From NCBI GenBank assembly GCA_963851005.1, contig CAWKNI010000002.1, positions 6,156-70,155 of the forward strand: a stretch of DNA of 64,000 nt, read 5' to 3'. Under the pieces are notes generated by a model. It ran no database searches, was not told where the DNA came from, and saw only the letters and a list, made by a program, of their open reading frames with translations. Of this stretch, positions 3,937-64,000 are shown piece by piece. The position numbers and the translations under genes are program-made. Source of the DNA: an uncultured delta proteobacterium. Its GTDB lineage: Bacteria; Desulfobacterota; Syntrophia; Syntrophales; Smithellaceae. Every line of letters starts with the position of its first letter. Positions within the stretch are counted from its first letter, which is position 1.

Positions 3937-3940
3937 GTTT

Positions 3941-15586: not shown

Positions 15587-15587
15587 A

Positions 15588-15737: not shown

Positions 15738-15903
15738 TGATATCTTATTTTCTTACGGAAGACTTTAACAATAATTATTTGATTTTCATCAAATATTATC
15801 GTACAAAATAAAAAATTCAACGAACAGTTTTTCTTAAACTGGCATATTAAAGATTACGTGTATTAATTGTTAGGTGTGAGGAAATAACCTCTAGAGAATA
15901 ACG

Positions 15904-17355: not shown

Positions 17356-17555
17356 AATTTAGTACTCAACAATTTCGGTCAGCGAATTCGCAATACTTGC
17401 CACTTATAAACACATTATGAAAGATAATACAAAAGATGACAAATCAAGAATGGTCAGAAAAAGATGGGGAAAGTAGAGGTTTTTATGATGGTGAGGGAAT
17501 TGATTATGGGGTAAGATAATATTAAATATTTTTTAGAAGATCAGGAGGGTTTATC

Positions 17556-34532: not shown

Positions 34533-34715
34533 TTAAAAGCCTTTCAAAAGTCTTTGAAGTTTTAAGTTAATCTTCCCCGTTGACTCCATAATATCATAGG
34601 CGTGTTCAGCGAGTATTTTATCCTCAGCATTGTAAAGTTCAATTAAAGACTTGTGCGCCAAATCAACAGCTTGTTGCGCTGCTTCAAGTTTTTCTTTGTC
34701 TAATTGAGAAATCAT
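34533..34715 (-). CDS. Small helical protein of unknown function inside the IS (between transposase and methyltransferase)
   Basis: 60-aa ORF. Its TAA stop directly abuts the methyltransferase ATG. Predicted coiled-coil-like sequence EKLEAAQQAVDLAHKSLIELYN. Confidence 0.45.
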   Translation of the reverse strand: MISQLDKEKLEAAQQAVDLAHKSLIELYNAEDKILAEHAYDIMESTGKINLKLQRLLKGF

Positions 34716-34734
34716 ATTCGTACTCCCCCTTTAT

Positions 34735-35655
34735 TTATTGGATAAGAATTTTATAAGGTAAGTTACTTGAATTCGCGGCATTGTTTATTACATTAGGGAA
34801 AATGGTTTTGAATTTTTCATCCCGCGTATTAAACCTATAAGTAAATTCATCTACATATTGTTGAAGATGTTTGTTGCTCATTGAATGGTATATCCCAACA
34901 TAACCGCGTTTAAAAATTGCCCAAAAACTTTCAGCGCAATTTGAATGAATCCCGCCATGTCTTACATATTCGCCGCGTGAATGAGAAATTGTCTCATGGT
35001 CGTATAACTTCCCTATCCGGTCATAAGAAGGGAAATCATCCGTAAAAAGTTTAGAACCTATTTTGATATTGTCAATAATGCGACTTTCGATGGTTCGCAT
35101 TTTCACATTATCAACTACTTGTGCGCGAGCCTCTCCACCACGTTGAATCATTCCAAAAACCGCTGTTTTGCCTTTAGTGTTTCTTCCTTGTGTCCCGCCA
35201 ATTCTCTTTCTCGCATGTTTGTTTTTCTCTTTGCCGCCGACATAGGTTTCGTCAACTTCGATGGTTCCAAATAATTGGCCGTTATTTTGTTTCATAGCTT
35301 TGCGAATTCTATGATCCATGAACCATCCAGTCTTTTGAGTAACGCCTACTTGTTTTGCAAGCTGAACGGAAGAAATTCCTTTCCGGCAAGTGGTAAGCAG
35401 ATATATAGCGATGAACCATTTTTGTAAAGAGATTTTGCTCTCTCCAAATATCGTTCCGGTCTTAATAGTAAAATCTTTATGGCAACGCGAACAGCGATAA
35501 CGCTTACCGTCTTTGAAGCGGTAAATAGTGGTATTCCCACAATGAGGGCAATATTCGCCATTCTTGAAACGAATCTGTTCAAAGAATTTATGGCAGGTTT
35601 CTTCATCCTTAAATTGATTTATGAATTCTACTATTGATGCAAAGTTCGTGTCCAT
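34735..35655 (-). CDS. IS1595-family (ISXO2-like) DDE transposase
   Basis: 306-aa ORF. N-terminal zinc ribbon CPHCGNTTIYRF..YRCSRCHKDFT, then ISLQKWFIAIYL, VDETYVGGKEKN, FTDDFPSYD, HSNCAESFWAIFKRG..GIYH.MS.KHLQQYVDEFTYRFN. Confidence 0.92.
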   Translation of the reverse strand: MDTNFASIVEFINQFKDEETCHKFFEQIRFKNGEYCPHCGNTTIYRFKDGKRYRCSRCHKDFTIKTGTIFGESKISLQKWFIAIYLLTTCRKGISSVQLAKQVGVTQKTGWFMDHRIRKAMKQNNGQLFGTIEVDETYVGGKEKNKHARKRIGGTQGRNTKGKTAVFGMIQRGGEARAQVVDNVKMRTIESRIIDNIKIGSKLFTDDFPSYDRIGKLYDHETISHSRGEYVRHGGIHSNCAESFWAIFKRGYVGIYHSMSNKHLQQYVDEFTYRFNTRDEKFKTIFPNVINNAANSSNLPYKILIQ

Positions 35656-47900: not shown

Positions 47901-48054
47901 GAACAATCGCGTCGGGAACTGTTTTGCCGATAAGCGGCGCAATAAGAGAAGGTATTGCAGCTATATCATGGCTGTATAACACACGCTCCACTTCATCAAA
48001 ATTCACACGATTGCCGAATTGCCCCTCCAGATATTCTTTCGTCTGCTGGTTCAT
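44977..48054 (-). CDS. Fusion of FAD-binding (GlcD-like) oxidase with a GlcF/HdrD-like Fe-S/CCG module and a Met/Pro-rich tail
   Basis: 1025-aa ORF. N-terminal FAD_binding_4 region; CSQCGYCVEEC and CTTCELCNLRC clusters; two CCG-type motifs (CCGTP..CPACD, HCCGS..CPCCQ); Met-rich C-terminal 121 aa. Confidence 0.88.
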   Translation of the reverse strand: MNQQTKEYLEGQFGNRVNFDEVERVLYSHDIAAIPSLIAPLIGKTVPDAIVQPQNEEELVNLTNWAGQNNIALTPRAKASSGYGGVLPIKKGIVVDFFRLNKILSIDKQAMTVTCQAGVVWEKVDAALAKEGLTVNLYPSSYPGSTVGGWLAQGGAGFGSYQYGWFRENVVSARVVLPDGSVRVFTGTDLDLIADAEGTTGFIIDLTMKVQPKEELEIIAIGCPEADALQMIVEDIVKADLPLWSLVFINPRMAEMKNRSPLMEHNGHPIEERVLLPASYVATIAFHKKDAAQGKAKLKEILRRCQGEILSERIAEHEWKNRFKIMVVKRLGPSLVPAEVVIPLSRLGNFMAEVEKKINQPIVKEGTVIRKGKDGKPEVVVLGFIPADQRKFSYNFVFSLSLSIMKIAEANGGRAYSTGLYFKAKASKVFGGERLAKLKAFKKQIDEKGIFNPGKVMGYNLMDSAVSIGSIVEPLIRPFGNYVITRIGERKTYPVSDIPSDVVWYAYSCSQCGYCVEECDQFYGRGWESQSPRGKWYWLREYLEGRAKWTQAQIDTFLVCTTCELCNLRCSAALPIEPSWMKLRGKLINQEKRMTFPPFEMMAEALRSEGNIWAGYRKNRADWFPEDLKEKHGPGRKAPAMYFAGCTVSYVEHDIGMATVRLLDRAGVDFVYAGKPENCCGTPMLVAGKWDLFEDIMRKNIEVVKRTGADTVIASCPACDMMWRNVYPEWAKKLGIEYNIKTKHYSEVIAEKIKSGEFKFPANNIKPVKVTWHDSCHIGRASGVYEPPRDMIRAIPNVQFVEMEHNHENAHCCGSVLSLIKDPPVAAEIGKTRLDEAVEAGAQKVLALCPCCQVQLRITAKKKNIPVDVVDLAHLAGNALGYDFPDPNPDVHSQWGVFDAFISLMTPQGFANLMGTMWPQLIDAMPFGMGPMMRVMGKIPGALNLMKPMFPVLFPRLLPMMMPKVMPTMLDRVAAQIAMPDYMREQMPELMPKVMDSLMPHMIGDLVPLVTQPMIDYLTGKNITN

Positions 48055-48152
48055 AAATAACCTCCGGTTTCCGATAAATTTGCCAAGTCGAAAACAAGTT
48101 GATTGGCACGACAGGGAGTTGATCTATCGTGCCAGTTTAAATTTAAATATGT

Positions 48153-49346
48153 TTAAAAAGTGTAGGCAACTCCCATATCAATTGAGTACTGTGACATTTC
48201 TGTTTCATATGAGCTGATATACTGTGACGGATTAGAGCCGCTAATTTTTGCTGTCGGTGAATACATGCCGCCGATGTTAAGTGTGAATTGTTTGGTAATA
48301 TTAATTCCAATACCTGCGGTAATGTGATGTTCAGAAACTGCTGGGAAAGCTATATTTTCGAATGCCCGGTTGCTATCAAGAGGCATTTTGCCGTAGTTAT
48401 AACCGGCTCGTAATACCACCATTGGATTAACTGTGTACTGAACGCCTAGTTTGTAGACGAACTGGTCGCTCCAATCCATATTCCAGGGCATGGCTCCACT
48501 GGCGTTGGCCGTGTATTTGGGCAGGTTTTGCCCATTGGTATCTGACCAGTTTATCCATTCGACATCAAAACCAATGGATAAATCTTTGATTGGTTTTATA
48601 CCTAAGCCTATTGTCGCCACTTGGGGCTGATCAAATTCTATATTATCTATACCGGCAGCTGTGTTAAAAGAAAAATCCTGAAAATAGCTTTTTGTCTCGT
48701 AGGCCAATCCAATCTGGATCATATCTATTGGTTTGACCAACACTCCGATAGTTGCTCCGTAACCGAAAGACGATGCGCCCATATGTGGCAGCTGGTCTGC
48801 AGGACTTGCGTTGGCAACATTAAATTCCATGGTCGCGTACATAATGTTGACTGCAACCCCGACGGACACTTTATCATTGATTTTGTAGGAAAGGGCCGGC
48901 GCGAAACGCATCTGTGAATACGCTGTATAGGTGGTGCTTCCGTAAAGATTTGCGGGATAATCAACACCCATACCGGCCACACCGTATGCACCTACCCCAA
49001 ACTTAAATTTATCACCAAGTGGGATGATCAAGCCAAAAGCAGGAACTGGTGATGCGCCTCGGTCAGAATCAATTTCAGCCCCATTAGCTCCCCCGGTTGC
49101 CTTATAGTCAACGGAAGGCTTGAAATATGAGGCACCAAAATCTATCCGCCCAGGCAAATCGCTCATACCGGCCGGATTGGTCAGTACTGACGCGGCATCA
49201 AGCGGGAGTCCCACACTCACCCCACCCATGGAATCCTGCACCGGACCGAAGCCGATCATCCGCATACCGTTGGTCGCGTAAACACTGCTCGCCATCAATA
49301 CTGCGCAAACAATACTCATTAAGGACAACCTAATTATTTTTTTCAT
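48153..49346 (-). CDS. FadL/OmpP1/TodX-family outer-membrane channel for hydrophobic compounds
   Basis: 397-aa ORF with a signal peptide, NPAGMS motif, alternating beta-strand pattern, and a C-terminal ...GVAYTF. Confidence 0.85.
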   Translation of the reverse strand: MKKIIRLSLMSIVCAVLMASSVYATNGMRMIGFGPVQDSMGGVSVGLPLDAASVLTNPAGMSDLPGRIDFGASYFKPSVDYKATGGANGAEIDSDRGASPVPAFGLIIPLGDKFKFGVGAYGVAGMGVDYPANLYGSTTYTAYSQMRFAPALSYKINDKVSVGVAVNIMYATMEFNVANASPADQLPHMGASSFGYGATIGVLVKPIDMIQIGLAYETKSYFQDFSFNTAAGIDNIEFDQPQVATIGLGIKPIKDLSIGFDVEWINWSDTNGQNLPKYTANASGAMPWNMDWSDQFVYKLGVQYTVNPMVVLRAGYNYGKMPLDSNRAFENIAFPAVSEHHITAGIGINITKQFTLNIGGMYSPTAKISGSNPSQYISSYETEMSQYSIDMGVAYTF

Positions 49347-49484
49347 ACTTCCTCCTTTTTCTCCTCAAATTTTTTAATATTTTCGATCAATTTTATTACG
49401 ATGAATTCGTCACAAAATCCTCCAGCGCAATCTTTTAAAAAAATATTTTGGGCCGACTCACCATAATTACCTAATGTGCGTAAT

Positions 49485-49865
49485 TTATTTTCGTTTAGCG
49501 GCAGTTTTGCGTTTCACTGATCTGTTACCAGATACGTCATTAAACTCTTTAACCATACGGGCAACTTCTTTTCCTCTTGCCCTGTGTTGTTCAACTAATA
49601 CTTCCCGCATTAAAGTGCAGGCCTGAATGATTTTAGGGTTGGAAATCGAATAAAACAATTGCTGTCCTTCACGCCGGGATACAATAACCCCTTTTGATTT
49701 CAACACATTCATATGCTGGGACATGCTTACTTTGTTTAAACCAGTTTCGTGCATGATTTCCTGATTGGATATTTCTTTGTCTTTAAGCAAATTAATAATT
49801 TCCAAACGCTTATCATTGGCAAAAATCTTACAGATATCAGCCTGAAGCTTAAAAATATTTTTCAT
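49485..49865 (-). CDS. ArsR/SmtB-family transcriptional regulator
   Basis: 126-aa ORF with FANDKRLEIINLLKDKEISNQEIMHETGLNKVSMSQHMNVLKSKGVIVSRREGQQLFYSI. Confidence 0.85.
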   Translation of the reverse strand: MKNIFKLQADICKIFANDKRLEIINLLKDKEISNQEIMHETGLNKVSMSQHMNVLKSKGVIVSRREGQQLFYSISNPKIIQACTLMREVLVEQHRARGKEVARMVKEFNDVSGNRSVKRKTAAKRK

Positions 49866-49949
49866 TTACCCTCCATCAACGATCAAAAGATTAAACTTCA
49901 TAACAGTAATTAAATTCCATGTTTGAGTTAACCAATAGTTTATTAGTTA

Positions 49950-49992
49950 ATATAGTTGCAAACTATATAACTCTTGTTTTCATACATGTCAA
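49950..49992 (-). promoter_or_regulatory. ArsR promoter with overlapping palindromic operator
   Basis: Minus-strand read: TTGACA (49987-49992), 17-nt spacer, TATATA (49964-49969). The palindrome ATATAGTT-GCA-AACTATAT (49950-49968) overlaps the -10. Confidence 0.55.
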
Positions 49993-50199
49993 TATAAATA
50001 TTAGAATTAGCAAAAGTTTAGCAGAATTGAGAAATAAAGAGTTATTATTTAACACATAATACAAGTATTGGGGGAGCAGGGCACACTCTTTCTAACGGTT
50101 TTTTAAGCTAAAATAGGCTTATAAGTAATAAGTCGCCAATCTTATAAAAACAATTGATCATATTAGTTTCATTAGTTGGTTAACTTTGGTCGACTCCCG

Positions 50200-51525
50200 T
50201 TATTTCCGAGGGGCAACTCTGCGATAGTTCATATTCGACATGAATGCAAAACACATCGCCGTGAAACTGCGGGTTTTTCTAAAGGTTGATGAGGCTTTGT
50301 GAAACAACACAGGCAAGGCGTATATTTGTCGGTTAATCTCTATCATCTTACGGTACAACTGATCAGGCTCCATACTGCCAGGCTTATGAATCACTTCGGT
50401 CATATCATAGTGGTCCCAATCTTTATGAAAATCAGTATAGAGTAATCGCTGCTCTTTACAATATCGGTCAAAAACCCGCGTGCCCGGTAGCGGAGTCAGG
50501 AATGTAGTCTGCATCACATCTATGTCATGATGAACCATGTAGTCGGCACGTTGTTGCAGTTTATCTGGGGTATCTCCATCCATCCCGAAGATAAAGGCTC
50601 CTAAAACTGCAATACCTGCACGGTTGATGTGACGGAATGCATGGGAATAATAATCTACTCCACGATTAATATTGAGCTGTTTATGGACTTCTTCTAGGGC
50701 ATCGACTTGCTCTGCTTCAAGCCCCAGGAAGACCATCTTGCAGCCAGCCCGGCTTGCCCAGGAAACCACTTCATCATCATCCCCAAAGTTCAGCGAAGCC
50801 TGGCAGAACCACCACTTGTTCAGCTTACGCTCCACCATCCCTTTGAAAATTTCCAATGCCTGCTCACGTGAATCCTTTCCGTACCCAATGATGTTATCAT
50901 CCACAAAGAATATCATTTTCTCTTTTATAGTTTCCAACTCGGCCAGTACTTCACCAGGAGGACGACGGCGGTATCGTCTCCCATTGAAAGCGCTAACCGA
51001 GCAGAATTCACAGTCCATCGGACAACCTCGCGAGGTTTGCACAGAGGCGAACATATAGCCAGGATTAAACAGGTCACGTCGCGGGCTCGGCATACCTGAC
51101 AAATCAGACCAGTCGCCCTTGTATATCTGCTGGAGACACCCGGCATCAACATCGACTATTACACGCGGCCATACAGTTTCAGCCTCGCCGACAACCACGG
51201 CATCTGCAAAACGAAGGGCTTCTTCAGGGCACATGGAGGCATGGATGCCCCCTATAATGACAGGTACACCTCGCTGTCGATAAATCGAAGCGATTTCGTA
51301 TGCCCGATTCGTAGAGGCAGTAAATGCCGTAATACCAACCAAATCCGCTTTTTGATAGGAGAAAGGCTTCCAGTTCTCATCAAGCAGCGTTACATCCCAC
51401 GAGGGAGGGGTGGCGGCTGCGACAATTCCTAAGCCAATAGGAGGAAACCGTGAAGACCTGTTAACAGTGAGCCCTACACGGGCAGGATTCACAGGGTTGA
51501 TCAGGACGAGATTTCTATTTTTCAT
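50200..51525 (-). CDS. B12-binding-domain radical SAM protein
   Basis: 441-aa ORF. N-terminal cobalamin-binding-like Rossmann region (VGITAFT..., VIIGGIHAS), then SRGCPMDCEFCSV. Confidence 0.88.
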   Translation of the reverse strand: MKNRNLVLINPVNPARVGLTVNRSSRFPPIGLGIVAAATPPSWDVTLLDENWKPFSYQKADLVGITAFTASTNRAYEIASIYRQRGVPVIIGGIHASMCPEEALRFADAVVVGEAETVWPRVIVDVDAGCLQQIYKGDWSDLSGMPSPRRDLFNPGYMFASVQTSRGCPMDCEFCSVSAFNGRRYRRRPPGEVLAELETIKEKMIFFVDDNIIGYGKDSREQALEIFKGMVERKLNKWWFCQASLNFGDDDEVVSWASRAGCKMVFLGLEAEQVDALEEVHKQLNINRGVDYYSHAFRHINRAGIAVLGAFIFGMDGDTPDKLQQRADYMVHHDIDVMQTTFLTPLPGTRVFDRYCKEQRLLYTDFHKDWDHYDMTEVIHKPGSMEPDQLYRKMIEINRQIYALPVLFHKASSTFRKTRSFTAMCFAFMSNMNYRRVAPRK

Positions 51526-54462: not shown

Positions 54463-54639
54463 TGAAATCTTGTGGTGTGAATTGTGTTTATTACGGATTG
54501 TAATGTTGGATATATTTCTAAGACAGCAATGTGTGGAAGTAAGAAATAACCTTGACACTCACTGTCAGGTTAAATTCTGTTTAGGGCACATCAATACAGG
54601 GAGCCTCCGGTCCCTACCGGTGGGGGCTCCACTACCAAA

Positions 54640-54750
54640 TTTTTTAAAATTAAATTTTTTCCTTGACAATAATTTGTCGGAGGATTAATGAATTTAATAG
54701 TTGGTTGAACGTCCAATCAAAATAAATAGAAGGATAATCAAATCGGGGGC
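54640..54750 (+). promoter_or_regulatory. Promoter-operator-leader module, copy 1 (upstream of the AOR operon)
   Basis: TTGACA (54663-54668), 17-nt spacer, TAATGA. After 9 nt comes the 20-bp near-palindrome TTGGTTGAACGTCCAATCAA (54701-54720; 16/20 self-complementary). The block is about 110 nt and alignable with 58505-58614. Confidence 0.6.
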
Positions 54751-54783: not shown

Positions 54784-56697
54784 GTGGCGAGCAAATACAA
54801 GGGCTACATGGGAAAGATACTGGATGTGGATCTTACAATGGGGAATATCGGTGAGTATAACTTGTCGGATCGCGACAGGGAGCGGTTCATAGGAGGCAGA
54901 TACATCTCCACAAAGATACTCTGGGATCAAATGAAGCCCGGCATCGATCCGTTATCGCTCGATAATATTCTCATCGTAATGACATCTCCCTTGACCGGCA
55001 CAGGCGCCCCATCAACGAGCCGTTATGACATCTCCGCCAAGAGTCCACAGACAGGTACCATCGGACATTCCAACAGCGGTGGAAATTTCGGTATACATCT
55101 GAAGAGGGCAGGCTGGGATGGTGTAATAATCAGGGGAAGAGCAAATGCCCCAGTTTATCTGGACATTAACGAAGATAAAGTAACGATCAAGGATGCCTCA
55201 CATTTATGGGGAAAGGATATCGAAGAGACAAAGGAACTGATGGGCGACAAGAAGGCAGGCAAGATGGTCATCGGTCCGGCCGGAGAGAACCTTGTAAGAT
55301 ATGCAATCGTAGTTTCCCAGGACAGGGCACACGGGCGTTCAGGCATGGGTGCGGTGCTGGGATCGAAGAACCTCAAAGGCATTGTTGCTCAAGGGAAGAA
55401 AAAGATTGAACTCCATGATCCGGAAGGTTTCCGGGAAACCATCAAGAAGTGGATAAAAATGCTCCAGGCGCATCCGGCAACGGGCGAGTTCGCCCCCAAG
55501 TATGGCACATCGGGGTTTTTGAAATCAATATCCGATCATAACGCTCTTCCCACAAAGAATTTCTCTTCAGGTCACTATGAGGATGCCCAAATGCTTACGG
55601 GCCAGACCCTTGCCGAAACAAGGCTTATAAAGAACGACGGTTGCCAGTCCTGCCCGATACGCTGCGCCAGAATCGTGGAGCTTGACGGCCGTCAGATCAA
55701 GGGACCTGAGTATGAGGTCTTGTGTCTGCTGGGGTCAAATCTGCTCATCAATGATATGGATGCGATCATACGCTGGAACTATGAACTGGACATTCTGGGA
55801 CTTGATACAATTTCTACCGGTACGGTGCTAGGCTTTGCGGCCGAGCTCAATGAAAAGGGCATGTGGAAGAATGGCATTGAATTCGGAAAAAAGGATAACA
55901 TCTCGGCTGTTATACGGAATATTGCTTTGCGCCAGGGCATCGGCGCAGATCTGGCCGAAGGCGTGCGGTACCTTTCGAAGAAATACGGCGGGGAAGATTT
56001 TGCTCCTCATTCCAAGGGCATGGAATTCGCCGCCTACGAACCTAGGGGAGCTGTCGGCCACGGCTTAGGCTATGCTACGGCAAACCGTGGCGCCTGCCAT
56101 CTTGATGGCGGTTATATGATCTATTTTGAGGCGACCGGTCCGGCAATCCTCGATCCCTACGACTACCGGTCCAAGCCGAGTTATACCATATTAGATCAGA
56201 ATCTCCTGTCCTCAATCAGCGCCGGAGGAAGTTGTCTGTTTACATCTTGGACAGTCCTGCCTTCCATCACCTTCAAGGTACCGAATTCCAAGATCGTGAG
56301 CTGGCTGGTCACGCAGATATTGACATATTCATGGCCCACAATAGAACTTACCTTGAAAATGCCATCCTTTATGATGAGATATCACCTCCCTATGCTTCCT
56401 CATTCCAAAGCCATAAAACAGGCTACAGGCATGGATATGGATTTCGGAAGATTCATCAGGATGGGAGAGAGAGGCTTTACTCTGGAACGGCTTTTTAATA
56501 CACGAGAGGGATTTTCCGCCAAGGAAGACACACTGCCCAAACGGTTCACCGATGTAGAACAGATCCCCGGGAAGACCAAGACAAAGGTTCCCCTCGGTAA
56601 AATGTTGCCCGCGTATTACAAGCTACGGGGGTGGGATGCAAACGGTATCCCGACGGCTAAGACACTGAGGAAGCTGGACTTGGAGGATTTGCTATGA
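54784..56697 (+). CDS. Tungsten/molybdopterin aldehyde:ferredoxin oxidoreductase (AOR family)
   Basis: 637-aa ORF with a GTG start after AGGAGG. YMGKILDVDLTMG..., GGRYISTKILWD, CQSCPIRC, and GLDTISTG are typical of AOR N- and C-terminal domains. Confidence 0.92.
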   Translation: MASKYKGYMGKILDVDLTMGNIGEYNLSDRDRERFIGGRYISTKILWDQMKPGIDPLSLDNILIVMTSPLTGTGAPSTSRYDISAKSPQTGTIGHSNSGGNFGIHLKRAGWDGVIIRGRANAPVYLDINEDKVTIKDASHLWGKDIEETKELMGDKKAGKMVIGPAGENLVRYAIVVSQDRAHGRSGMGAVLGSKNLKGIVAQGKKKIELHDPEGFRETIKKWIKMLQAHPATGEFAPKYGTSGFLKSISDHNALPTKNFSSGHYEDAQMLTGQTLAETRLIKNDGCQSCPIRCARIVELDGRQIKGPEYEVLCLLGSNLLINDMDAIIRWNYELDILGLDTISTGTVLGFAAELNEKGMWKNGIEFGKKDNISAVIRNIALRQGIGADLAEGVRYLSKKYGGEDFAPHSKGMEFAAYEPRGAVGHGLGYATANRGACHLDGGYMIYFEATGPAILDPYDYRSKPSYTILDQNLLSSISAGGSCLFTSWTVLPSITFKVPNSKIVSWLVTQILTYSWPTIELTLKMPSFMMRYHLPMLPHSKAIKQATGMDMDFGRFIRMGERGFTLERLFNTREGFSAKEDTLPKRFTDVEQIPGKTKTKVPLGKMLPAYYKLRGWDANGIPTAKTLRKLDLEDLL

Positions 56698-56853
56698 TCT
56701 TAAGTATGAAGAGGTGAAGGGAGAATACAGCGCAAAAACATTGCCGGTGGGAGTGCTGGCCGCGTCTGCGGATTTTTGTTCATGATAATTAGACCGTTAT
56801 TGATATAGTCCAAGTATGAACAAGCAGTGTCTTACTGGAAAAAGAGGAAGGTA

Positions 56854-58488
56854 ATGGAATTTGATTTTGCAGTGATAGGAAGCGGTTTCGGGGGCAGTGT
56901 ATCGGCGTTGCGGCTTGCGGAAAAGGGATACAGCGTTGTCGTGCTGGAAAAAGGCAAATGGGTGACCCCCCTGGATATGGAAGACGCATCCAAAAGCTTG
57001 AACAAGCTTATCTGGAATCCTGCGCTGGGCATGAGGGGCTTTTTCACCTATGATTTCTTTCGGCATGTTTCCATTGTTGGCGGTGTTGGCGTCGGCGGCG
57101 GAAGTCTCGTTTATGCAGCGACCACATTGAGGCCGAAGCAAGCCTTTTATCAGGATTCGGCCTGGAGCAATCTCGGAATCGACTGGGAAAAGGAGCTGAA
57201 ACCTCATTATGATACCGCTTCTAAAATGCTGGGTATAGTTAGAAATCCGGTAATGGATGTCATGGACGACTACCTGAAAGACGTGGCGGAGAAAATGGGA
57301 GCGGGCGATACATTTGGTCCTACCGATACCGGCATCTACTTCGGGATACCGGAAGTGATTGTTGATGATCCCTTCTTCAATGGGAAGGGGCCTTCACGGT
57401 CAGGTTGTTATCTCTGTGGCGAATGTCTCACGGGATGTAAGCACGGTTCGAAAAATAGCCTGGACAAAAATTATCTCTATCTTGCCCAGAAATACGGGGC
57501 GACAATCCTGCCGTACCGGGAAGTCACAAACATTATTCCTCAACAAAACGGCACATATGTCCTGAAGGTAAAGGACAACTCCGGGCTGTGCAAAAAATCT
57601 TCCGATATTAAGGCAAAAAAAGTAGTCGTGGCGGCAGGTGTTCTAGGAACACTGAAGTTGCTGTTTAGATGCAAACAAGTCACAAAAACTCTGCCAGATA
57701 TATCCCGGCAGCTGGGTGTGGTTGTCAGGACAAATAGCGAATCCATTGTAGGTGTTTTGCCCAAACAGGAGGATTTGGATCTTTCCCACGGCACAACGAT
57801 ATCATCGGACTTTTATCCTGATAAATATACACATATCACCCAGAACCGGTTTCCCGAGGGCTACAGTTTCATGAAATATTTCAGCGTTCCCCTTGTGGAT
57901 GACGACCATCCCGTAAGGAGAACTCTGAGAACTCTGGGCAAGATGATTTTGAATCCTCTGGATATCTTTCGGGCAATTTTTGCTAAAAACTGGCACAAGC
58001 GAATCATCGTCCTGACCGTTATGCAGAACCATGACAACCAGCTTTCCTTCAAGTATGGCCCCAGCGCCGTGTTTTCTTTTTTGATGCGCCGTTTAAAGTC
58101 AAAGACCGTTCTGGGGAAAGAAGCGCCGGTAAATATTCCCGTGGCCAACAAGGCGTGCGCCATTCTGGCAGATGTAGCCCAGGGAATGCCCATCAATGTC
58201 AGCAACGAAAACCTGATGAATATGTCGACAACAGCCCATATTCTCGGCGGTTGCCACATGGGATCTTCTCCCGAGAACGGTGTTATCGACACATCACACC
58301 GGGTTTTCGGATACGATGGTCTTTATGTGTGTGACGGTGCGGCAGTTTCGGCCAATGTAGGCGTTAATCCCGCTCTTACGATCACGGCGCTTGCGGAACG
58401 GGCGATGAGTCTTATTCCGGATAAGAAATCAGCCCCGGATGGTTTTTTACGAAACGCCCCTAAATTAAGGATTTTACCGAACAATTAA
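56854..58488 (+). CDS. GMC-family FAD oxidoreductase (cholesterol-oxidase/alcohol-oxidase-like)
   Basis: Start moved to ATG 56854 (RBS AGAGGAAGG). FDFAVIGSGFGGSVSALRLAEKGYSVVVLEKG, and a C-terminal HILGGCHMG...VCDGAAVSANVGVNPALTI. Confidence 0.85.
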   Translation: MEFDFAVIGSGFGGSVSALRLAEKGYSVVVLEKGKWVTPLDMEDASKSLNKLIWNPALGMRGFFTYDFFRHVSIVGGVGVGGGSLVYAATTLRPKQAFYQDSAWSNLGIDWEKELKPHYDTASKMLGIVRNPVMDVMDDYLKDVAEKMGAGDTFGPTDTGIYFGIPEVIVDDPFFNGKGPSRSGCYLCGECLTGCKHGSKNSLDKNYLYLAQKYGATILPYREVTNIIPQQNGTYVLKVKDNSGLCKKSSDIKAKKVVVAAGVLGTLKLLFRCKQVTKTLPDISRQLGVVVRTNSESIVGVLPKQEDLDLSHGTTISSDFYPDKYTHITQNRFPEGYSFMKYFSVPLVDDDHPVRRTLRTLGKMILNPLDIFRAIFAKNWHKRIIVLTVMQNHDNQLSFKYGPSAVFSFLMRRLKSKTVLGKEAPVNIPVANKACAILADVAQGMPINVSNENLMNMSTTAHILGGCHMGSSPENGVIDTSHRVFGYDGLYVCDGAAVSANVGVNPALTITALAERAMSLIPDKKSAPDGFLRNAPKLRILPNN

Positions 58489-58504
58489 TCCGTACTTAAT
58501 TTAT

Positions 58505-58614
58505 TTTAAAAAAATTAAAATTTTTTCTTGACAATAATCGGAGGGAGGATTAAAGAAATAACAAGTTGGTTGAACGTCCAATCAAAAAATTAAGAGGATG
58601 ATCTCATCCGGGGC
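58505..58614 (+). promoter_or_regulatory. Promoter-operator-leader module, copy 2 (upstream of the PHP/thiolase-like operon)
   Basis: TTGACA (58528-58533), 17-nt spacer, TAAAGA. After 9 nt comes the identical TTGGTTGAACGTCCAATCAA (58566-58585). The leader block GAGGATGATC..ATCCGGGGC is shared with copy 1. Confidence 0.6.
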
Positions 58615-58638
58615 AATGTTAATGTTCAGTCGGTATAT

Positions 58639-59187
58639 ATGCTATTAAAGGGATGTTTACATACGCACACAACTTGCTCGGATGGTAAACTGTCACCACA
58701 GGAAGTAGCCAATGAATATGAATCAAGAGGATATGATTTTATAGCTTTTACCGATCATGATTACTTGCTTAAGCCCAATTACCGGGAGATATACGGGCAG
58801 GTAAAGACAAACATGATCATATTTTATGGCATCGAGTTAAGCGTCTTTGTCAATGGAAATATACATGTGTCAAAAATTGAAGGTGAAAATGAGGTGCTAC
58901 ACATATTCAACCACATCGGCGAATACGACTTTACCCCGGAGCAGTTGCTGGTTCGGCTGGCGGAACTGGAAAAGAAGTATCCTCTAGATGCGGTGGAAAT
59001 AACGACAAAAGGGTATCGCGATATAGTTTTTGAATCACTCGATATAGCGTATCCCAAACTGGCATCTGATGACTCGCACACACTGGGCGGTATCGGCAGG
59101 GCATGGATAGAATTGGACGCGCAGCGGAGGAAAGATTCCATCATAAGAGCGATAAAAAAAGGAAAATGTTGGAATTGCTACATATAA
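58639..59187 (+). CDS. PHP-domain metal-dependent phosphoesterase-like protein
   Basis: 182-aa ORF. CLHTHTTCSDGKLSPQEV...GYDFIAFTDHD fits the PHP motif pattern. Confidence 0.75.
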   Translation: MLLKGCLHTHTTCSDGKLSPQEVANEYESRGYDFIAFTDHDYLLKPNYREIYGQVKTNMIIFYGIELSVFVNGNIHVSKIEGENEVLHIFNHIGEYDFTPEQLLVRLAELEKKYPLDAVEITTKGYRDIVFESLDIAYPKLASDDSHTLGGIGRAWIELDAQRRKDSIIRAIKKGKCWNCYI

Positions 59188-59242
59188 CAAAAGAGGATTT
59201 ATATAATCCTTTATAAAGTCACATCAAATAGGAGGAATGGTA

Positions 59243-60397
59243 ATGGCGAAAAAAATTGCCGTCTGCGCAGTGGCGCAGATTAAAAATGATCCGGAATACA
59301 AAGATCTTCGTTTCCAGAACATGCTGCTCGAGTGTTTCGAGTCAATCATGGACCAGACCAAGGTTACCTTCGACATGGATAAAGGCATCAGAACCATCAT
59401 CACGTGCTCGGATGACGTGTTCGATGCGCGAACCATATCCAACAACGGCATAACGGATGTCGTGGGCGCGCACTTTCGGGGCGAGGAAAAGATGGCACAG
59501 GAGAGCATCAATGGCTTGGGTTACGCTATGGCATGCATACTATCAGGCCATGATGACTTGATCCTTTTCATGGGTCACTGCAAGGAGTCCCAGGGCGAAA
59601 GCCGCAGGATGGTTTCCAACTTGGCCTATGATCCGTTCTACTGCAGGCCTCTCGGTATGGACTATCACAACGCAGACGCCTTACAGGCTCGAGCTTACAT
59701 GGAAAAATCGAAAGTAACTGACGAACATCTTGCCAAAGTAGTGGTACGCTCGCGGAAGAATGCGAAAAATAACCCCTATGCGCGAAAGAATAAAATTGTA
59801 ACCGAAAAAGAAGTGATGAATTCGCCGATGTATTCGGACCCGTTGCGTGAACTGCACATTTATCCGGTCACCGACTGGGCGTATGGCATGCTCCTATGCA
59901 GCGAAGAACGGGCGAAGGAGTTTACAAAAAAACCCGTATGGATTACCGGGTACGGGAGCTGTATGGATTCATATTTCCTCGGTGATAAGGACATTACCTC
60001 AAATTTTTCACTTAAAAATGCGGCACAGCGGGCATACGCCAAGGCCGGTATAAAAGATCCCAGAAAAGAGATTCAGCTTTTCGAGCTTAGCGACCACGCC
60101 GCATACCAGCTTCCGATGTGGGCCGAAGGTGTCGGCATTGCCGATGAAGGTAAAGGTGGCAAATGGATCGACGACGGCGGCATGGATAAATTTAATCTCA
60201 ACCTGTCAGGGGGACAGCTCAATGGCAATCCTCTTCTTCTTGGGGGTGCGGCCAGAGCCATTGAATGTTACTATCACCTATCCAATCAGGCAGATGACCG
60301 CCAGGTAAAGGGTGCAAAGCGGGCAGTCGCCCAGGCGGCAACCGGCGGGGCCGGGCAGCATCAGGCCGTAATCGTAATGGAAGCGCAGGGAGGTTGA
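59243..60397 (+). CDS. Thiolase-like protein A (SCP-x/DUF35-partner type, non-canonical active site)
   Basis: Start taken at ATG 59243 (6 nt after GGAGGA). Thiolase-fold length and layout. The C-terminal block NLSGGQLNGNPLLLGGAA sits where thiolases have N.SGG....GHP.GA.G. Confidence 0.8.
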   Translation: MAKKIAVCAVAQIKNDPEYKDLRFQNMLLECFESIMDQTKVTFDMDKGIRTIITCSDDVFDARTISNNGITDVVGAHFRGEEKMAQESINGLGYAMACILSGHDDLILFMGHCKESQGESRRMVSNLAYDPFYCRPLGMDYHNADALQARAYMEKSKVTDEHLAKVVVRSRKNAKNNPYARKNKIVTEKEVMNSPMYSDPLRELHIYPVTDWAYGMLLCSEERAKEFTKKPVWITGYGSCMDSYFLGDKDITSNFSLKNAAQRAYAKAGIKDPRKEIQLFELSDHAAYQLPMWAEGVGIADEGKGGKWIDDGGMDKFNLNLSGGQLNGNPLLLGGAARAIECYYHLSNQADDRQVKGAKRAVAQAATGGAGQHQAVIVMEAQGG

Positions 60398-60400
60398 ACA

Positions 60401-61600
60401 ATGGCACATAAAAAGAAAAATAGAAATGTTGGAATAATAGGTGTTGGACAGACAAAACATTCCAGCCATCGGGAGGATGTCAATCAGCCTGAGTTGATCT
60501 ATGAAGCCGTCAGCCTTGCTCTTAAAGATGCAAATCTGACCATGAAGGACATCGATTGTGTCGTTCACGGCAATATGGAGCTCTTTGAGATGGTTCACTC
60601 GCCGGATCTCTGGCATGTGTTGGGAACCGGCGCCTATGGAAAAGATTGCATTAGGATCACGACCGGTGGAACTGTCGGGGCTACCATTTCATGCGCTTCA
60701 GACAATCTCGTGGCGTCGGGGATGTATGATATCGTAATGGCCATCGGTTTTGAGAAACTGCAGGAAGGGCACACTACCGGCGGCATCACCAACATGGCAG
60801 ACCCTCTCTGGTTCAGGAAAATACAGGCTGGCGCGCTTACCGGGTCCTCGGCTTATGATGTCGAACGGGAATTCGGCGTTGAGCGTGCGGACAAGGCATC
60901 GCTGATATATCGCATCATCATGGATAAGCACGCGGCGCTTAATCCCAACGCACACCGCGCCTTTGGCCTTGAATTCAGCCAGATCGACGACCTCATCAGG
61001 ACTTCACCGAAGCTCGTCGGCAATCTCAAGCTCATCGAAATGTGTTCGCAATCAGACGGAGCATGCTGTGTCATCTTCGCCTGTGAGAAGAAAGCAAAAG
61101 ACCTAACCAAGACGCCGGTTTGGATACGAGATCATATCACCGTTCACAAGGAAGAAACATTCAACATATTCGGATATAACAGAGCATTTCCTGTTATGAA
61201 GTCGCATAAATTTGCGGCGGAACAACTCTTCAAGAGGAACGGCATTACAGACCCCTTAAATTATTTTGATGTTTTTGAAATGTATGATCCGGCCTCATGG
61301 TGGGCCATTGACTGGCTCAGAGACTTCTTCGACCTGAAAGGTGATGAGCATCTCAAGCTCATTGAAAATAAGGAGATCATGATTGGTGGCAAAATGCCCA
61401 TTAACCCGTCAGGCGGCGTGATTGGCTCGAACCCAATCGGCGCGACCGCGCTGATCAGAGTGGCCGAAGCGGCTATGCAGGTGCGCGGCAATGCCGGTCC
61501 GCACCAGATACCGACTCCGGTCAATCACGCTCTGGCGTCAGGGTTCGGCGGCACCATGTGGACAGTGCTGACAATGCTCGAGAAGGAACTTAACTGGTAG
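60401..61600 (+). CDS. Thiolase-like protein B (SCP-x type, non-canonical active site)
   Basis: 399-aa ORF. RNVGIIGVGQTKHS, candidate nucleophile region TISCASDNLVASGMYD, and C-terminal INPSGGVIGSNPIGATA (SNP where GHP is expected). Confidence 0.85.
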   Translation: MAHKKKNRNVGIIGVGQTKHSSHREDVNQPELIYEAVSLALKDANLTMKDIDCVVHGNMELFEMVHSPDLWHVLGTGAYGKDCIRITTGGTVGATISCASDNLVASGMYDIVMAIGFEKLQEGHTTGGITNMADPLWFRKIQAGALTGSSAYDVEREFGVERADKASLIYRIIMDKHAALNPNAHRAFGLEFSQIDDLIRTSPKLVGNLKLIEMCSQSDGACCVIFACEKKAKDLTKTPVWIRDHITVHKEETFNIFGYNRAFPVMKSHKFAAEQLFKRNGITDPLNYFDVFEMYDPASWWAIDWLRDFFDLKGDEHLKLIENKEIMIGGKMPINPSGGVIGSNPIGATALIRVAEAAMQVRGNAGPHQIPTPVNHALASGFGGTMWTVLTMLEKELNW

Positions 61601-61610
61601 GAGGATAATC

Positions 61611-62801
61611 ATGGCAGAATACTGGGGAATAAAAGTAGAAGATATATTCAATACGATGAAAGAGCGTTTCCGTCCCGAAGGCGCTAAGGATGTCGATGCG
61701 GTTTTCGGTTATGATATCGAAAACGAGGGGAAATGGAAACTGACGGTAAAGAACAACGAAATGGTGATCGAGAAGACCGACAACCTTTCCGGATGCATTG
61801 CGACTATGAAAGCCGACGGCGAGACGTTTGTTGGAGTAAATACCGGCAAAGTTGACGCCACGAACGCCTTCATGAGCGGTAAGGTCAAGGTTGAGGGCGA
61901 CATCGGTGCATTTGGGAAGACCGGCAAACTCTTCCGCAAATATGTGATTGCCAAGAAGGAGATGACGACGAAGGATTATCTCGCAGACATGTTCGCGACG
62001 ATTGTGCCGCGGTTCAAGGCTAAAGAGTCCGAAGGGATTGAAGCCTCTTTTGCTTTTGATCTCGGCGGAGCGGACGGCGGCAAATGGACCGTTTTCATAA
62101 AGGATAAAGTATGCACGGTCACGACGACCATCGAGGGTAAGCCAACGGTTACGCTGGAATTCAACGAAGCTAGAGATTATGTCGATTTTATACTTGGGAA
62201 GATTGACGCTCAGAGCATCCTGGCTGCGGGAAAGGCTGCTGCCAAGGGCGATATCAATATGATGGCGACAAAGTGGCCTGTGTTGTTTGAAAAATACAAA
62301 GATCCCATGGCCGGTGCTGTGCAGGAACAGGAACTGTTGGTGCTAAAAAAGACCATATCTGTCGACCAGAAGTTTTCCACCGGCCCCGTCATGGGCAAGT
62401 TCCTCAAGGGATTGAAAGATAAAAAAATATACGCGAATAAATGCCCCAAGTGCGGTCGCTTACAGCTGCCGCCGCGGGAAGTGTGTGCCGAATGCCGGGT
62501 GCGCGCCACTGATTTCCTTGAGGTTGGCCCAAAGGGTGAAGTCCGCTATATGGACATAGTCTACTACGCCATGCCTGATCCGCTTACCGGCGTGGCCAGA
62601 GAAACCCCGTACGGGTCGATCTTTGTCCTCCTGGACGGATGTACAGGCAATGAAACCCTGACACATTTTATCAGAAAAGACCAGATAGAGAAAATCCAGC
62701 TGGGATGGAACGAGAAAAAGGGTACACGTGTCCGCCCCGTCTGGGAGGAAAATAGAATCGCTGATATCTGGGATATTAAATATTTTGAAATAGATGAGTA
62801 A
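61611..62801 (+). CDS. SCP2 - SCP2 - DUF35 (zinc-ribbon/OB-fold) fusion protein
   Basis: 396-aa ORF. Two sterol-carrier-protein-2-like units (..TNAFMSGKVKVEGDIGAFGKTGKLF; ..ILAAGKAAAKGDINMMATKWPVLF), then the zinc ribbon CPKCGRLQLPPREVCAEC and an OB-fold. Confidence 0.8.
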   Translation: MAEYWGIKVEDIFNTMKERFRPEGAKDVDAVFGYDIENEGKWKLTVKNNEMVIEKTDNLSGCIATMKADGETFVGVNTGKVDATNAFMSGKVKVEGDIGAFGKTGKLFRKYVIAKKEMTTKDYLADMFATIVPRFKAKESEGIEASFAFDLGGADGGKWTVFIKDKVCTVTTTIEGKPTVTLEFNEARDYVDFILGKIDAQSILAAGKAAAKGDINMMATKWPVLFEKYKDPMAGAVQEQELLVLKKTISVDQKFSTGPVMGKFLKGLKDKKIYANKCPKCGRLQLPPREVCAECRVRATDFLEVGPKGEVRYMDIVYYAMPDPLTGVARETPYGSIFVLLDGCTGNETLTHFIRKDQIEKIQLGWNEKKGTRVRPVWEENRIADIWDIKYFEIDE

Positions 62802-62812
62802 GGAGTAAGTAT

Positions 62813-64000
62813 ATGACAAAAAAGCAAATGAAAGGTTATGAAGACAGCTTTGTGGTTGAAGGTAAAATGGCGCTCCCTTATACTTACTTCGCCGGCCGGG
62901 TTGGCAGCAAGTTCATCACAACCATCCGGGACCAGAAGAAAATCATGGGAGTGAAATGTCCTGCCTGCAATATCGTCTATCTGCCGCCAAGGCAGGTATG
63001 CGAAAAGGACTTTACCGACATCCGCGACAAATGGGTCGAGGTAAGTAATACCGGCAGAGTTACCAACTTCACAGTGGTGCGCTATGACGACAAGCACCTG
63101 CCAAGGAAAGCGCCCTTTGTGCTGGCCCTTATAAAATTGGACGGCGCGGATACGCCTTTTATGCATATTCTTGAGGAATGCAAAATAGAGGACGTAAAGA
63201 TAGGTATGAAAGTAGAGGCGGTTTTCGCCAAAGAAACGACGAACACCATTCTGGATATTGATCATTTTAAACCGGCGCCTGAAAGAGTTTCTGTTCACGA
63301 GATTAACGCGGCCAGGAAGCAATGGGTTCCCGAAGATGAACCCGATACTAAAGAAAAACGAAAAGGAGGCAAACCCAATATGTCAAAACCCGTTATTATC
63401 ACCGCGGCGCTTACCGGAGCTGCCACAATGAAGAATCAAAACCCGTCAGTGCCTTATACACCGGCGGAGTTCGCGGAAGAAGCATACAAGTGCTGGAAAG
63501 CTGGAGCGGCCATGGTGCATGTGCATGCCCGTGAAGAGGGAGGTATGGCCACCCATGATCACGCGAGAATCAAGGCAACCTACGATGCTATTAAGGACAA
63601 ATGTCCGGACATCATTGTCTGCCTGACCTCCGCAGTCGGCATGAACAAAACAACAGAGCAGCGGTTATCCCAGATCGTGGCGATCAAGCCCGAAGTGGCG
63701 TCGCTGAACACCAACACGATGAACTTCGGCATCGTTGACCGCAAAACAGGGAAGATATTCATCGATTATGTGTTTGAGAATACTTTCACCATGCTGCAGG
63801 ATTTCGGCAAGGCTATGGAAGAAAACAGTGTGAAGCCGGAAATCGAGTGCTACGATATGGGCGGACTCGACAACGCCATTCTGATAGGCAAGCAGGGTAT
63901 CTTCACCGACCCGATGAACTTCAATTTCGTCTGGGGAGTCGCGGGTGGACAGCAGTTCCGGGCTGAATCATTCATTGCCATGATGAACGCGCTTCCCGCG
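62813..64000 (+). CDS. DUF35 (zinc-ribbon/OB-fold) protein fused in frame to a BKACE-family (3-keto-5-aminohexanoate cleavage-like, DUF849) enzyme; 3'-partial
   Basis: Not in the ORF track. ATG 62813 follows AAGGAG. I read all 396 codons to the window end without a stop. The DUF35 part has CPACNIVYLPPRQVC...GRVTNFTVV. A ~37-aa linker follows, then MSKPVIITAALTGA...PYTPAEFAEEAYKCWKAGAAMVHVHARE (BKACE signature), starting at an internal ATG 63380 that has its own AAAGGAGG. Confidence 0.75.
   Translation, partial: MTKKQMKGYEDSFVVEGKMALPYTYFAGRVGSKFITTIRDQKKIMGVKCPACNIVYLPPRQVCEKDFTDIRDKWVEVSNTGRVTNFTVVRYDDKHLPRKAPFVLALIKLDGADTPFMHILEECKIEDVKIGMKVEAVFAKETTNTILDIDHFKPAPERVSVHEINAARKQWVPEDEPDTKEKRKGGKPNMSKPVIITAALTGAATMKNQNPSVPYTPAEFAEEAYKCWKAGAAMVHVHAREEGGMATHDHARIKATYDAIKDKCPDIIVCLTSAVGMNKTTEQRLSQIVAIKPEVASLNTNTMNFGIVDRKTGKIFIDYVFENTFTMLQDFGKAMEENSVKPEIECYDMGGLDNAILIGKQGIFTDPMNFNFVWGVAGGQQFRAESFIAMMNALPA

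Follow-up and report, generated by a model that had tools for sequence, protein, structure and literature searches.

Here we present a gene cluster that lies at the end of a 64,000-nucleotide stretch of DNA (the window, positions 6,156 to 70,155 of contig CAWKNI010000002.1 in assembly GCA_963851005.1) from an uncultured delta proteobacterium of the Smithellaceae. Five plus-strand genes at 58639-64000 encode a PHP-family protein, two thiolase-fold proteins that we call A and B, a protein in which two sterol carrier protein 2 (SCP2) domains are joined to a DUF35 domain, and a fusion of DUF35 to a domain of the beta-keto-acid cleaving enzymes (BKACE). We tentatively read these genes as the head of a DUF35-scaffolded metabolon that would couple retro-aldol cleavage to BKACE and would act on a beta-branched hydrophobic acyl-CoA. 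To our knowledge, little is understood of the enzymes by which branched hydrophobic lipids (isoprenoids, sterol side chains, archaeal lipids) are degraded in methanogenic habitats without oxygen. The cluster is a testable candidate for a new multi-enzyme machine, and in it DUF35 would be a general dock for BKACE and SCP2 on an aldolase.

The first gene (58639-59187) encodes the PHP-family protein of 182 amino acids (Pfam PHP and PHP_C). It is followed by A (386 amino acids, 59237-60397), in which Pfam detects only Thiolase_C_1, and by B (399 amino acids, 60401-61600), in which it detects Thiolase_C_1 and a weak Thiolase_N. The SCP2-SCP2-DUF35 protein (396 amino acids, 61611-62801) matches SCP2 in two stretches and zf-ChsH2, while the DUF35-BKACE fusion, which starts at 62813 and is interrupted by the end of the window at 64000 with 396 of its 475 codons inside, matches zf-ChsH2, OB_ChsH2_C and BKACE. 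The complete length of 475 amino acids was read from L002, a Logan contig that is 100% identical to window positions 60974-64000 and extends 6.6 kb further; further context comes from the ENA contig L001, which is 97-98% identical to the window. An initial annotation, made from the letters of the window alone, had assigned the same domains, and all of its calls proved correct; sequence searches of the PDB agree with Pfam. The gaps between the five genes are, in order, 49, 3, 10 and 11 nucleotides. The annotation had also given each gene its own ribosome-binding site, and a GGAGG-like Shine-Dalgarno sequence does precede four of the five, but not the PHP gene.

Active sites of the thiolase-fold proteins

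The observation that first drew attention to A and B was that the catalytic His of the thiolase GHP loop appeared to be replaced by Asn in both, with the caveat that an alignment error would undo it. The substitution is real and conserved. HMMER pairwise alignments with the zebrafish SCP2-thiolase, a Pyrococcus thiolase, a Methanothermococcus thiolase and ST0096 place Asn at the GHP His position of both proteins. The residue keeps its place in an alignment of 237 sequences (68 A, 68 B, 51 Thl3, 48 Thl4 and two reference thiolases), in which it is at least 90% conserved among the 68 orthologues of A and the 68 of B. Thl3 and Thl4 are two further thiolase-fold paralogues, encoded downstream of A and B. 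Database names such as ‘acetyl-CoA C-acetyltransferase’ would make A and B ordinary acetoacetyl-CoA or 3-ketoacyl-CoA thiolases in which the Asn is a misalignment; however, three independent pairwise alignments and the 237-sequence alignment agree in having Gly or Ser where the nucleophile should stand and Asn in place of the GHP His, so that this reading is refuted at the sequence level and we give it practically no credence.

The exchange of His for Asn understates how far the active sites have changed. The nucleophilic Cys, which in thiolases stands at the N-terminus of helix N-alpha-3 (NNNCSTG or EAACASG), is absent from all four paralogues, and neither A nor B has the His and Cys of the HDCF/NEAF motif of Claisen thiolases; both losses extend over the 68 orthologues of each protein. 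In A the nucleophile column holds Ser or varies, the HDCF loop reads l-s-D-h-a and the GHP loop G-N-P; in B the three read Gly (TTGGT), M-Y-D-P-a and s-N-P; in Thl3 Gly, v-y-D-A-F and G-H-P; and in Thl4 Gly, l-Y-q-P-Y and c-N-P. Because the nucleophilic Cys, the HDCF His and Cys and the GHP His have all been lost, A and B are, as judged from their sequences, not Claisen thiolases, and covalent Claisen chemistry is beyond the reach of all four paralogues. The retro-Claisen cleavage that had been suggested for the thiolase-fold proteins appears unlikely, since no nucleophilic Cys is found in any of the four paralogues, and a retro-aldol reaction would be the better reading.

Other features of the fold have been retained. 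The thiolase loops GFEK, SDGA, NPSGG and GFGG are kept in B and Thl4, with A and Thl3 being the more degenerate partners, and at the position of the aldolase base B (Y-D-P) and Thl4 (Y-q-P) invariably have Tyr, Thl3 has it in most sequences, and A has Ser. B, at 68-96% identity across phyla, is the most conserved protein of its set, and Thl4 is the most conserved of the second set. These facts bear on a rival explanation in which A and B are catalytically dead scaffolds for the SCP2 carrier and BKACE, with BKACE as the sole catalyst. Its beta-keto acid would then be made outside the set, for instance by CoA transfer from a 3-oxoacyl-CoA or when a 3-hydroxy acid is oxidised. The loss of all canonical catalytic residues from A and B would suit such scaffolds, as would the Gct-like CoA-transferase in the cluster, and the PhlACB, MucABC and P. 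fluorescens complexes each have one thiolase-fold subunit without a catalytic role of its own (PMC12960953). However, a dead scaffold would not account for the high conservation of B, its substrate loops and its invariant Tyr at the aldolase base position, and the Thl3/Thl4 set, which comes with two plain DUF35 proteins and has no other catalyst attached, should itself be catalytic. We consider the scaffold explanation unlikely.

The relatives of B were also sought through its fold. An AlphaFold2 model reached a predicted local distance difference test (pLDDT) score of 33 from the single sequence and of 77 with an alignment, the latter with a thiolase fold. In a Foldseek search this model matches all of the DUF35-partnered thiolase-fold enzymes at template-modelling (TM) scores of 0.72-0.82, and the search does not separate aldolases from thiolases. 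By sequence and predicted fold, B belongs to the SCP2-thiolase/archaeal-thiolase clade, which holds the archaeal thiolase, BbsB, Ltp2, Sal, PhlC and MucB and contains every known DUF35-partnered enzyme. The closest systems by sequence and fold are the archaeal thiolase/HMG-CoA synthase (HMGS)/DUF35 complex and its derivatives PhlACB and MucABC, in which DUF35 glues together two kinds of thiolase-superfamily subunit and which channel an intermediate that is unstable or unfavourable (PMC12960953). Unlike the proteins encoded here, those complexes have a catalytic Cys of their own in the ACAT subunit, an HMGS/KAS-III-like subunit, one DUF35 per pair, and neither BKACE nor SCP2. The same differences bear on whether A and B might form a CoA-independent or biosynthetic complex for C-acyl transfer (Friedel-Crafts) or condensation, in the manner of PhlACB and MucABC. 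Two different thiolase-fold subunits accompanied by DUF35, with PhlC and MucB among the structural neighbours, would fit, but the acyl-accepting Cys of PhlC is absent, both subunits are ACAT-like with none of the HMGS/KAS-III type, no polyketide synthase or non-ribosomal peptide synthetase lies nearby, and the surrounding genes (for a CoA ligase, acyl-CoA dehydrogenases, hydratases and TetR) are those of a catabolic cluster, all of which makes such a complex highly improbable.

Active-site motifs separate these enzymes where the fold does not, and two groups of aldolases bear comparison. SCP2-thiolases carry HDCF, whereas in Ltp2 the motif is YDHF, its Tyr serving as base and Tyr344 as acid, and in Sal it is YDCY, whose Tyr and Cys serve as base and acid, respectively (Rolfe et al. 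2025, PMC12329534). The steroid side-chain aldolases Ltp2-ChsH2 and Sal-Shy resemble the proteins of the window in their Cys-less thiolase fold, in the Tyr that comes first in the HDCF equivalent, in the DUF35 partner, and in the preceding hydratase and acyl-CoA dehydrogenase steps. They differ in that they are homodimers whose DUF35 is fused to a MaoC hydratase, and the sequence similarity is weak (6ok1, E 1e-10).

The second group was reached through Thl4, whose best cultured relatives in a tblastn search of annotated plasmids are Actinomycetota at about 40% identity. In Tsukamurella tyrosinosolvens the Thl4 match is the second gene of a triad that encodes a tandem-DUF35 protein, a 359-amino-acid thiolase-like protein and a 390-amino-acid thiolase-like protein, and genes for a ligase, a crotonase, a P450 and a ‘steroid 3-ketoacyl-CoA thiolase’ are close by; in Rhodococcus qingshengii the match is preceded by TetR, a MaoC pair and two acyl-CoA dehydrogenases and followed by a DUF35 protein. 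The Tsukamurella pair scores above the NCBIfam cutoffs of PRK08313 (734 bits, cutoff 514) and PRK07937 ‘lipid-transfer protein’ (593 bits, cutoff 419). The PRK08313 member has HTAGS at the nucleophile loop (Gly for Cys), YVPF for HDCF and SNP for GHP, and the PRK07937 member lacks the nucleophilic Cys and has HAPF for HDCF and GNP for GHP. Window-type proteins fall below these cutoffs, with 264 bits for B, whose best NCBIfam match is PRK08313, 368 bits for Thl4 against the same model, and 160 bits for A against PRK07937. From its gene order and its protein sizes, the triad is presumably an Ltp3/Ltp4 locus like Rv3521-Rv3523 of M. tuberculosis.

Several likenesses connect the two systems: both have an adjacent pair of different Cys-less thiolase-fold proteins, with the pattern G / Y-x-P / x-N-P in the large member and G-N-P in the small one; both encode two DUF35 domains per pair; and both lie among genes for a CoA ligase, acyl-CoA dehydrogenase pairs, MaoC pairs or a crotonase, and TetR. 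They differ in that identity is only about 30-40%, that the DUF35 domains of the window stand on separate proteins and are fused to the SCP2 pair and to BKACE, and that here the module is present twice, its hosts are strict anaerobes, and PHP and PP2C-like genes have been added. In this comparison B would be the Ltp3-like (PRK08313-like) protein and A the degenerate, Ltp4-like (PRK07937-like) partner. The signature shared with the PRK08313/PRK07937 pairs, together with the tandem DUF35, supports a reading as an Ltp3-Ltp4-type aldol-lyase, and we regard aldolase chemistry by A and B as probable. The precedents named in the initial annotation (Ltp2 with DUF35, BbsAB and the archaeal complex) were thus in the right neighbourhood, but by active-site signature the Ltp3/Ltp4-type pairs are closer than either Ltp2 or BbsB.

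Fusions, conservation and duplication

The remaining two proteins bring in the lipid-binding carrier and the second enzyme. PDB matches of the SCP2-SCP2-DUF35 protein are SCP2 domains and the DUF35 proteins 3irb, 6esq_E and 6ok1_B, and its zinc ribbon (CPxCG...CxxC) is conserved. The BKACE domain (PF05853) of the fusion scores 213 bits against a Pfam cutoff of 24.8, and its closest structure is 2y7d (E 9e-48), an entry for the 3-keto-5-aminohexanoate cleavage enzyme Kce. Like other members of the Kce/BKACE family, which are TIM-barrel zinc enzymes with HxH and E-D ligands, it has the full ligand set (H236, H238, E428 and D429), invariant in 13 diverse homologues; unlike them, it is fused to DUF35. 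Its score against the Kce equivalog NF052387 is 181 bits, below the cutoff of 382, and Kce Glu14 is replaced by Ala (TGAE to TGAA). Glu14 is presumably the residue that binds the amino group of the Kce substrate.

In the Desulfobacula/Desulfobacterium, Desulfomonilia and L084 loci, DUF35 and BKACE are encoded by separate genes. Domains that are fused here and split elsewhere are classical fusion/fission evidence of a physical partnership, and a physical complex of A, B and both DUF35 proteins is, on our reading of the sequences, very probable. The best 120 homologues listed for the fusion include full-length matches at 64-95% identity, and the corresponding 120 of B include such matches at 71-95%; all of these homologues come from metagenome-assembled genomes (MAGs) or metagenomes and carry generic names; a name look-up of cluster members returned only ‘OB-fold protein/putative sterol carrier protein’. 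Our literature searches yielded no paper that joins BKACE and DUF35, or Smithella and the Kce name, and a search on Smithella with SCP2/DUF35 gave no description of this architecture. A NetSyn survey of BKACE genomic contexts makes no mention of DUF35, thiolase or SCP2, and BKACE (DUF849) is not mentioned in a 2026 paper on DUF35-thiolase complexes. The fusions of DUF35 to BKACE and to paired SCP2 domains within Ltp3/4-type DUF35-scaffolded complexes are therefore new, insofar as we found no paper describing them. Two metagenomic proteins carry Rosetta-stone fusions of their own: P0245 (897 amino acids) is an acyl-CoA synthetase fused to an SCP2-SCP2-DUF35 zinc ribbon, and P0281 (722 amino acids) combines a KAS-III-like domain, a DUF35 OB fold and two SCP2 domains.

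Conservation was assessed in a set of 80 loci, drawn from contigs of one genome per species, with gene order read by tblastn. About 70 of them, from at least three phyla, share the order PHP-A-B-SCP2/DUF35-DUF35/BKACE, so that the five genes do form a conserved functional unit, as had been proposed. The hosts are Smithella/Syntrophaceae, Spirochaetota/Leptospirales, Desulfomonilia and other MAGs from peat, lakes, sulfidic springs and digesters. The closest relatives, at 95% amino-acid identity, are Syntrophaceae and Smithella MAGs, and homologue searches of the five-gene cluster gave no match in cultured organisms.

The unit is not, however, a self-contained five-gene operon, as first described; it opens a cluster of at least 15 genes and makes up its first third. 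Just past the window follows a FadD11-like, long-chain-type acyl-CoA synthetase, which bears out the CoA-ester formation that the annotation had placed in its route. Farther downstream come a two-subunit CoA-transferase, nearest to glutaconate CoA-transferase (Gct-type) and with the catalytic Glu kept; a second aldolase-like set, in which two DUF35 genes (DUF35_2 and DUF35_3) flank Thl3 and Thl4; and genes for a 300-amino-acid PP2C-like protein, TetR, and one or two acyl-CoA dehydrogenases. Hydratases also recur: L083 has a MaoC-N/MaoC pair after its acyl-CoA dehydrogenases, and 28 loci, mostly of Spirochaetota, have a crotonase between BKACE and the ligase. In some loci the ligase and the CoA-transferase are missing alternately, which suggests that substrate activation is redundant. 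We also considered whether the CoA-transferase could be an IpdAB-like ring hydrolase or an AibAB-like decarboxylase, and rejected both, since the matches to glutaconate CoA-transferase (E 1e-40 and 1e-45) are far better than those to the other two (E 1e-17 and 1e-10), and the catalytic Glu kept here is Ser in AibB.

The two sets are related part by part. A pairs with Thl3 and B with Thl4, the DUF35 of the BKACE fusion is paralogous to DUF35_2 (49% identity), and the DUF35 of the SCP2 protein is paralogous to DUF35_3 (36% identity), from which it follows that a whole four-part module (an A-type protein, a B-type protein and two different DUF35 proteins) was duplicated. In the copy within the window, one DUF35 appears to have gained BKACE and the other two SCP2 domains.

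Neighbourhood clustering covered 84 loci, and among their recurrent neighbours there is no 3-hydroxyacyl-CoA dehydrogenase and no Cys-bearing thiolase. The absence of the dehydrogenase fits a tertiary (branched) carbinol, which can be cleaved only aldolytically. It would also fit an aldolytic, Bbs-like route in Smithella for the (1-methylalkyl)succinates that arise by addition of fumarate to alkanes, in which CoA transfer, dehydrogenation and hydration would lead to a tertiary alcohol that is then split into succinyl-CoA and a 2-alkanone. In its favour, the structural and sequence relatives include BbsB, CoA-transferases of the type found here act on dicarboxylates, and the nearest relatives of the cluster are Smithella and Syntrophaceae MAGs. 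Yet the cluster is just as conserved in the Spirochaetota/Leptospirales and Desulfomonilia MAGs, no alkylsuccinate synthase genes were seen in the window or the loci, and the route would leave BKACE without a beta-keto acid; we hold it to be improbable. A role in the dismutation of propionate by Smithella via a C6 intermediate was rejected in view of the equal conservation in Spirochaetota and Desulfomonilia, the SCP2 domains, the long-chain-type ligase, the lack of a mutase and the lack of literature support.

Smaller observations attach to the individual members of the cluster. The PHP protein, a short member of this family of metal-dependent hydrolases, scores 32.5 bits (Pfam PHP, PF02811, cutoff 26.4). 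Each of its metal-binding residues H8, H10, D15, H40, E66, H92, D145 and H147 reaches a conservation of at least 95% over 62 sequences, namely 61 orthologues and the protein of the window. Its gene was found in 59 of the loci and is missing in a few, such as L084, L038 and L039. The PP2C-like protein (19017-19919 of L004, with orthologues in 41 loci) carries the motifs DGSER..ASRD, HGGDS, TDGFxD and YDDIG; its label is tentative, as it has no Pfam match and the only PP2C matches of its profile are weak ones (E 0.014). Each aldolase-like set is thus accompanied by a metal-phosphatase-like protein, PHP with the first and the PP2C-like protein with the second. The acyl-CoA dehydrogenases can be adjacent paralogues of about 42% identity (L083 18465-20839; L004 20703-21869), in which the catalytic-Glu motif YEGT of medium-chain acyl-CoA dehydrogenase reads GGGT in the first and GEGA in the second, a pair reminiscent of the heteromeric steroid acyl-CoA dehydrogenases. 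The variant locus L084 (JGI 3300005144), where BKACE stands alone and PHP is absent, encodes at 14410-17522 two amine-oxidase/CrtI-like FAD enzymes after an acyl-CoA dehydrogenase and a MaoC-N gene, which is a possible hint of isoprenoid-type substrates.

A possible reaction sequence

In the metabolon that we propose, A and B would together form a heteromeric retro-aldol lyase of the Ltp4/Ltp3 type, with the active site in B, the Tyr of Y-D-P as its base, and A as a degenerate partner. One DUF35 would cap each subunit, the one bearing the two SCP2 domains and the other the zinc-dependent BKACE. A hydrophobic acid would first be activated by the long-chain-type CoA ligase or the Gct-like CoA-transferase, and the acyl-CoA dehydrogenases would desaturate the resulting acyl-CoA. 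Hydration by a crotonase or a MaoC-type hydratase would then yield a 3-hydroxyacyl-CoA whose carbinol carbon is branched and cannot be oxidised, and the aldolase would split the bond between C-alpha and C-beta and release a short acyl-CoA. If the branch bears a carboxyl group, as proposed for Ltp3-Ltp4 and C24-branched sterol side chains, the other product would be an unstable, hydrophobic beta-keto acid. The SCP2 domains would hold this greasy, decarboxylation-prone acid, and BKACE would react it with acetyl-CoA to give a shortened acyl-CoA and (methyl)acetoacetate. Passage of a beta-keto acid from the aldolase to BKACE is plausible to us, though short of probable. Thl3 and Thl4 would carry out a second aldol cleavage, and an aldehyde oxidoreductase and a cholesterol-oxidase-like GMC enzyme encoded upstream may be strain-specific feeders that oxidise an alcohol or aldehyde.

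The precedent for the carboxylated branch is the degradation of sterols. Ltp3-Ltp4 is described as a heteromeric aldol-lyase that cuts the C24-C25 bond of C24-branched sterol side chains after carboxylation at C28 and hydration, and its product is a carboxylate that ‘should’ then be thioesterified (PMC6678751). We infer that this carboxylate is a beta-keto acid, with its keto group at C24 and its carboxyl at C28.

A number of points weigh against the proposed metabolon. The second catalytic residue differs from those of the characterised aldolases, in that B has Pro at the position of Sal Cys304 and Asn at that of Ltp2 Tyr344, so that its sequence offers no recognisable general acid, and in sequence neither A nor B is as close to Ltp2 or Sal as to the archaeal and SCP2-type thiolases. 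Without a carboxylase the beta-keto-acid route is incomplete, and none is found among the large open reading frames of the window or the recurrent neighbours of the 84 loci. The model gives no role to PHP, whose metal site is intact, or to the PP2C-like protein. The biochemistry of Ltp3-Ltp4 was itself deduced solely from genetics, and the equation of PRK08313 and PRK07937 with Ltp3 and Ltp4 is tentative, being based on gene order and protein sizes.

A more specific form of the proposal is an anaerobic, ATP-saving metabolon for the removal of branches, in which an Ltp3/4-like aldolase would yield a beta-keto acid that is kept on the complex and handed by SCP2 to BKACE, which would turn it into an acyl-CoA and acetoacetate. 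Its candidate substrates would be phytol or phytanate, isoprenoid acids (including those from archaeal membrane lipids in methanogenic consortia) and the C24-branched side chains of phytosterols. This version is speculative and we think it rather unlikely to be right in full. Were it true, it would fill a gap in the removal of sterol branches, namely ‘thioesterification after aldol cleavage’, and would put a name to a widespread route by which isoprenoids and sterols are turned over in peat, sediments and digesters. What becomes of the beta-keto acid that Ltp3-Ltp4-type aldolases produce when actinobacteria degrade sterols may find its explanation here as well, and pairs of aldolase and BKACE could serve as biocatalysts for the cleavage or formation of C-C bonds on bulky substrates.

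Regulation and other features of the window

The two oxidoreductase genes named above lie directly upstream of the cluster on the plus strand. The first (54784-56697) encodes an AOR-family aldehyde:ferredoxin oxidoreductase (Pfam AFOR_N 240 bits, AFOR_C 376 bits), and the second (56827-58488) a GMC flavoprotein of the cholesterol-oxidase branch (Pfam GMC_oxred_N/C). The latter matches the NCBIfam cholesterol oxidase model over its full length at 511 bits, which does not reach the cutoff of 850, and among solved structures it comes nearest to cholesterol oxidases (E 1e-25), with other GMC enzymes at 1e-8.

An imperfect palindrome of 20 nucleotides, TTGGTTGAACGTCCAATCAA, occurs exactly twice in the 64 kb of the window, where 0.02 copies are expected by chance. 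The first copy (54701-54720, plus strand) lies 83 bp upstream of the start of AOR and the second (58566-58585, plus strand) 73 bp upstream of PHP. Both are found just downstream of a TTGACA, within a duplicated cassette of about 110 nucleotides (54636-54750 and 58500-58615) whose AOR-side and PHP-side flanks align at about 85%. On the PHP side, a promoter-like TTGACA (58528-58533) and a candidate -10 element, TAAAGA (58551-58556), were read directly from the plus strand; consensus promoter and terminator scans stayed at background level, and an Rfam scan of the region returned no match. Upstream of PHP, about 20 Smithella-type loci have the identical 20-mer despite variable spacing, and most loci have it or a close variant there. 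It precedes AOR wherever AOR is present at high identity, namely in L007, L010 and L054 and, with one mismatch, in L001, and variants lie upstream of the PHP, CoA-transferase and TetR genes in Spirochaetota loci. The shared operator links PHP with AOR and, in other genomes, with the CoA-transferase and TetR genes, and these putative operators mark what is by all appearances a TetR-type regulon.

The initial annotation had counted AOR and GMC as co-regulated members of the route. Co-regulation holds in this genome, given the duplicated promoter of about 110 nucleotides and the identical 20-bp operator, but core membership does not, as the two are present in a minority of loci; AOR was found in only five related loci (L001, L007, L010, L054 and, at 37% identity, L076). 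Being confined to a handful of loci, AOR and GMC are accessory genes. Relatives of this region carry two genes that the window lacks. In L001 (3453-4112) and L004 a membrane-protein gene (219-228 amino acids) lies between AOR and GMC, where the window keeps 75 bp (56703-56777), and in the same two relatives (L001 5857-6678) an FMN-reductase gene lies between GMC and PHP, which is absent from the window at about 58462-58466.

Elsewhere in the window, three minus-strand genes 7-13 kb upstream of the cluster (44977-51525) encode a 1025-amino-acid FAD/FeS/CCG oxidoreductase (44977-48054), an outer-membrane channel of the FadL/TodX type, which serves hydrophobic compounds (48153-49346), and a B12-binding radical SAM protein (50200-51525). 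On the same strand, at 33648-35655, an IS1595-family transposase adjoins a D12-class N6-adenine DNA methyltransferase. Positions 4001-6000, which span an open reading frame of 666 amino acids (3881-5881), have a G+C content of 0.52 against a background of 0.39-0.41.

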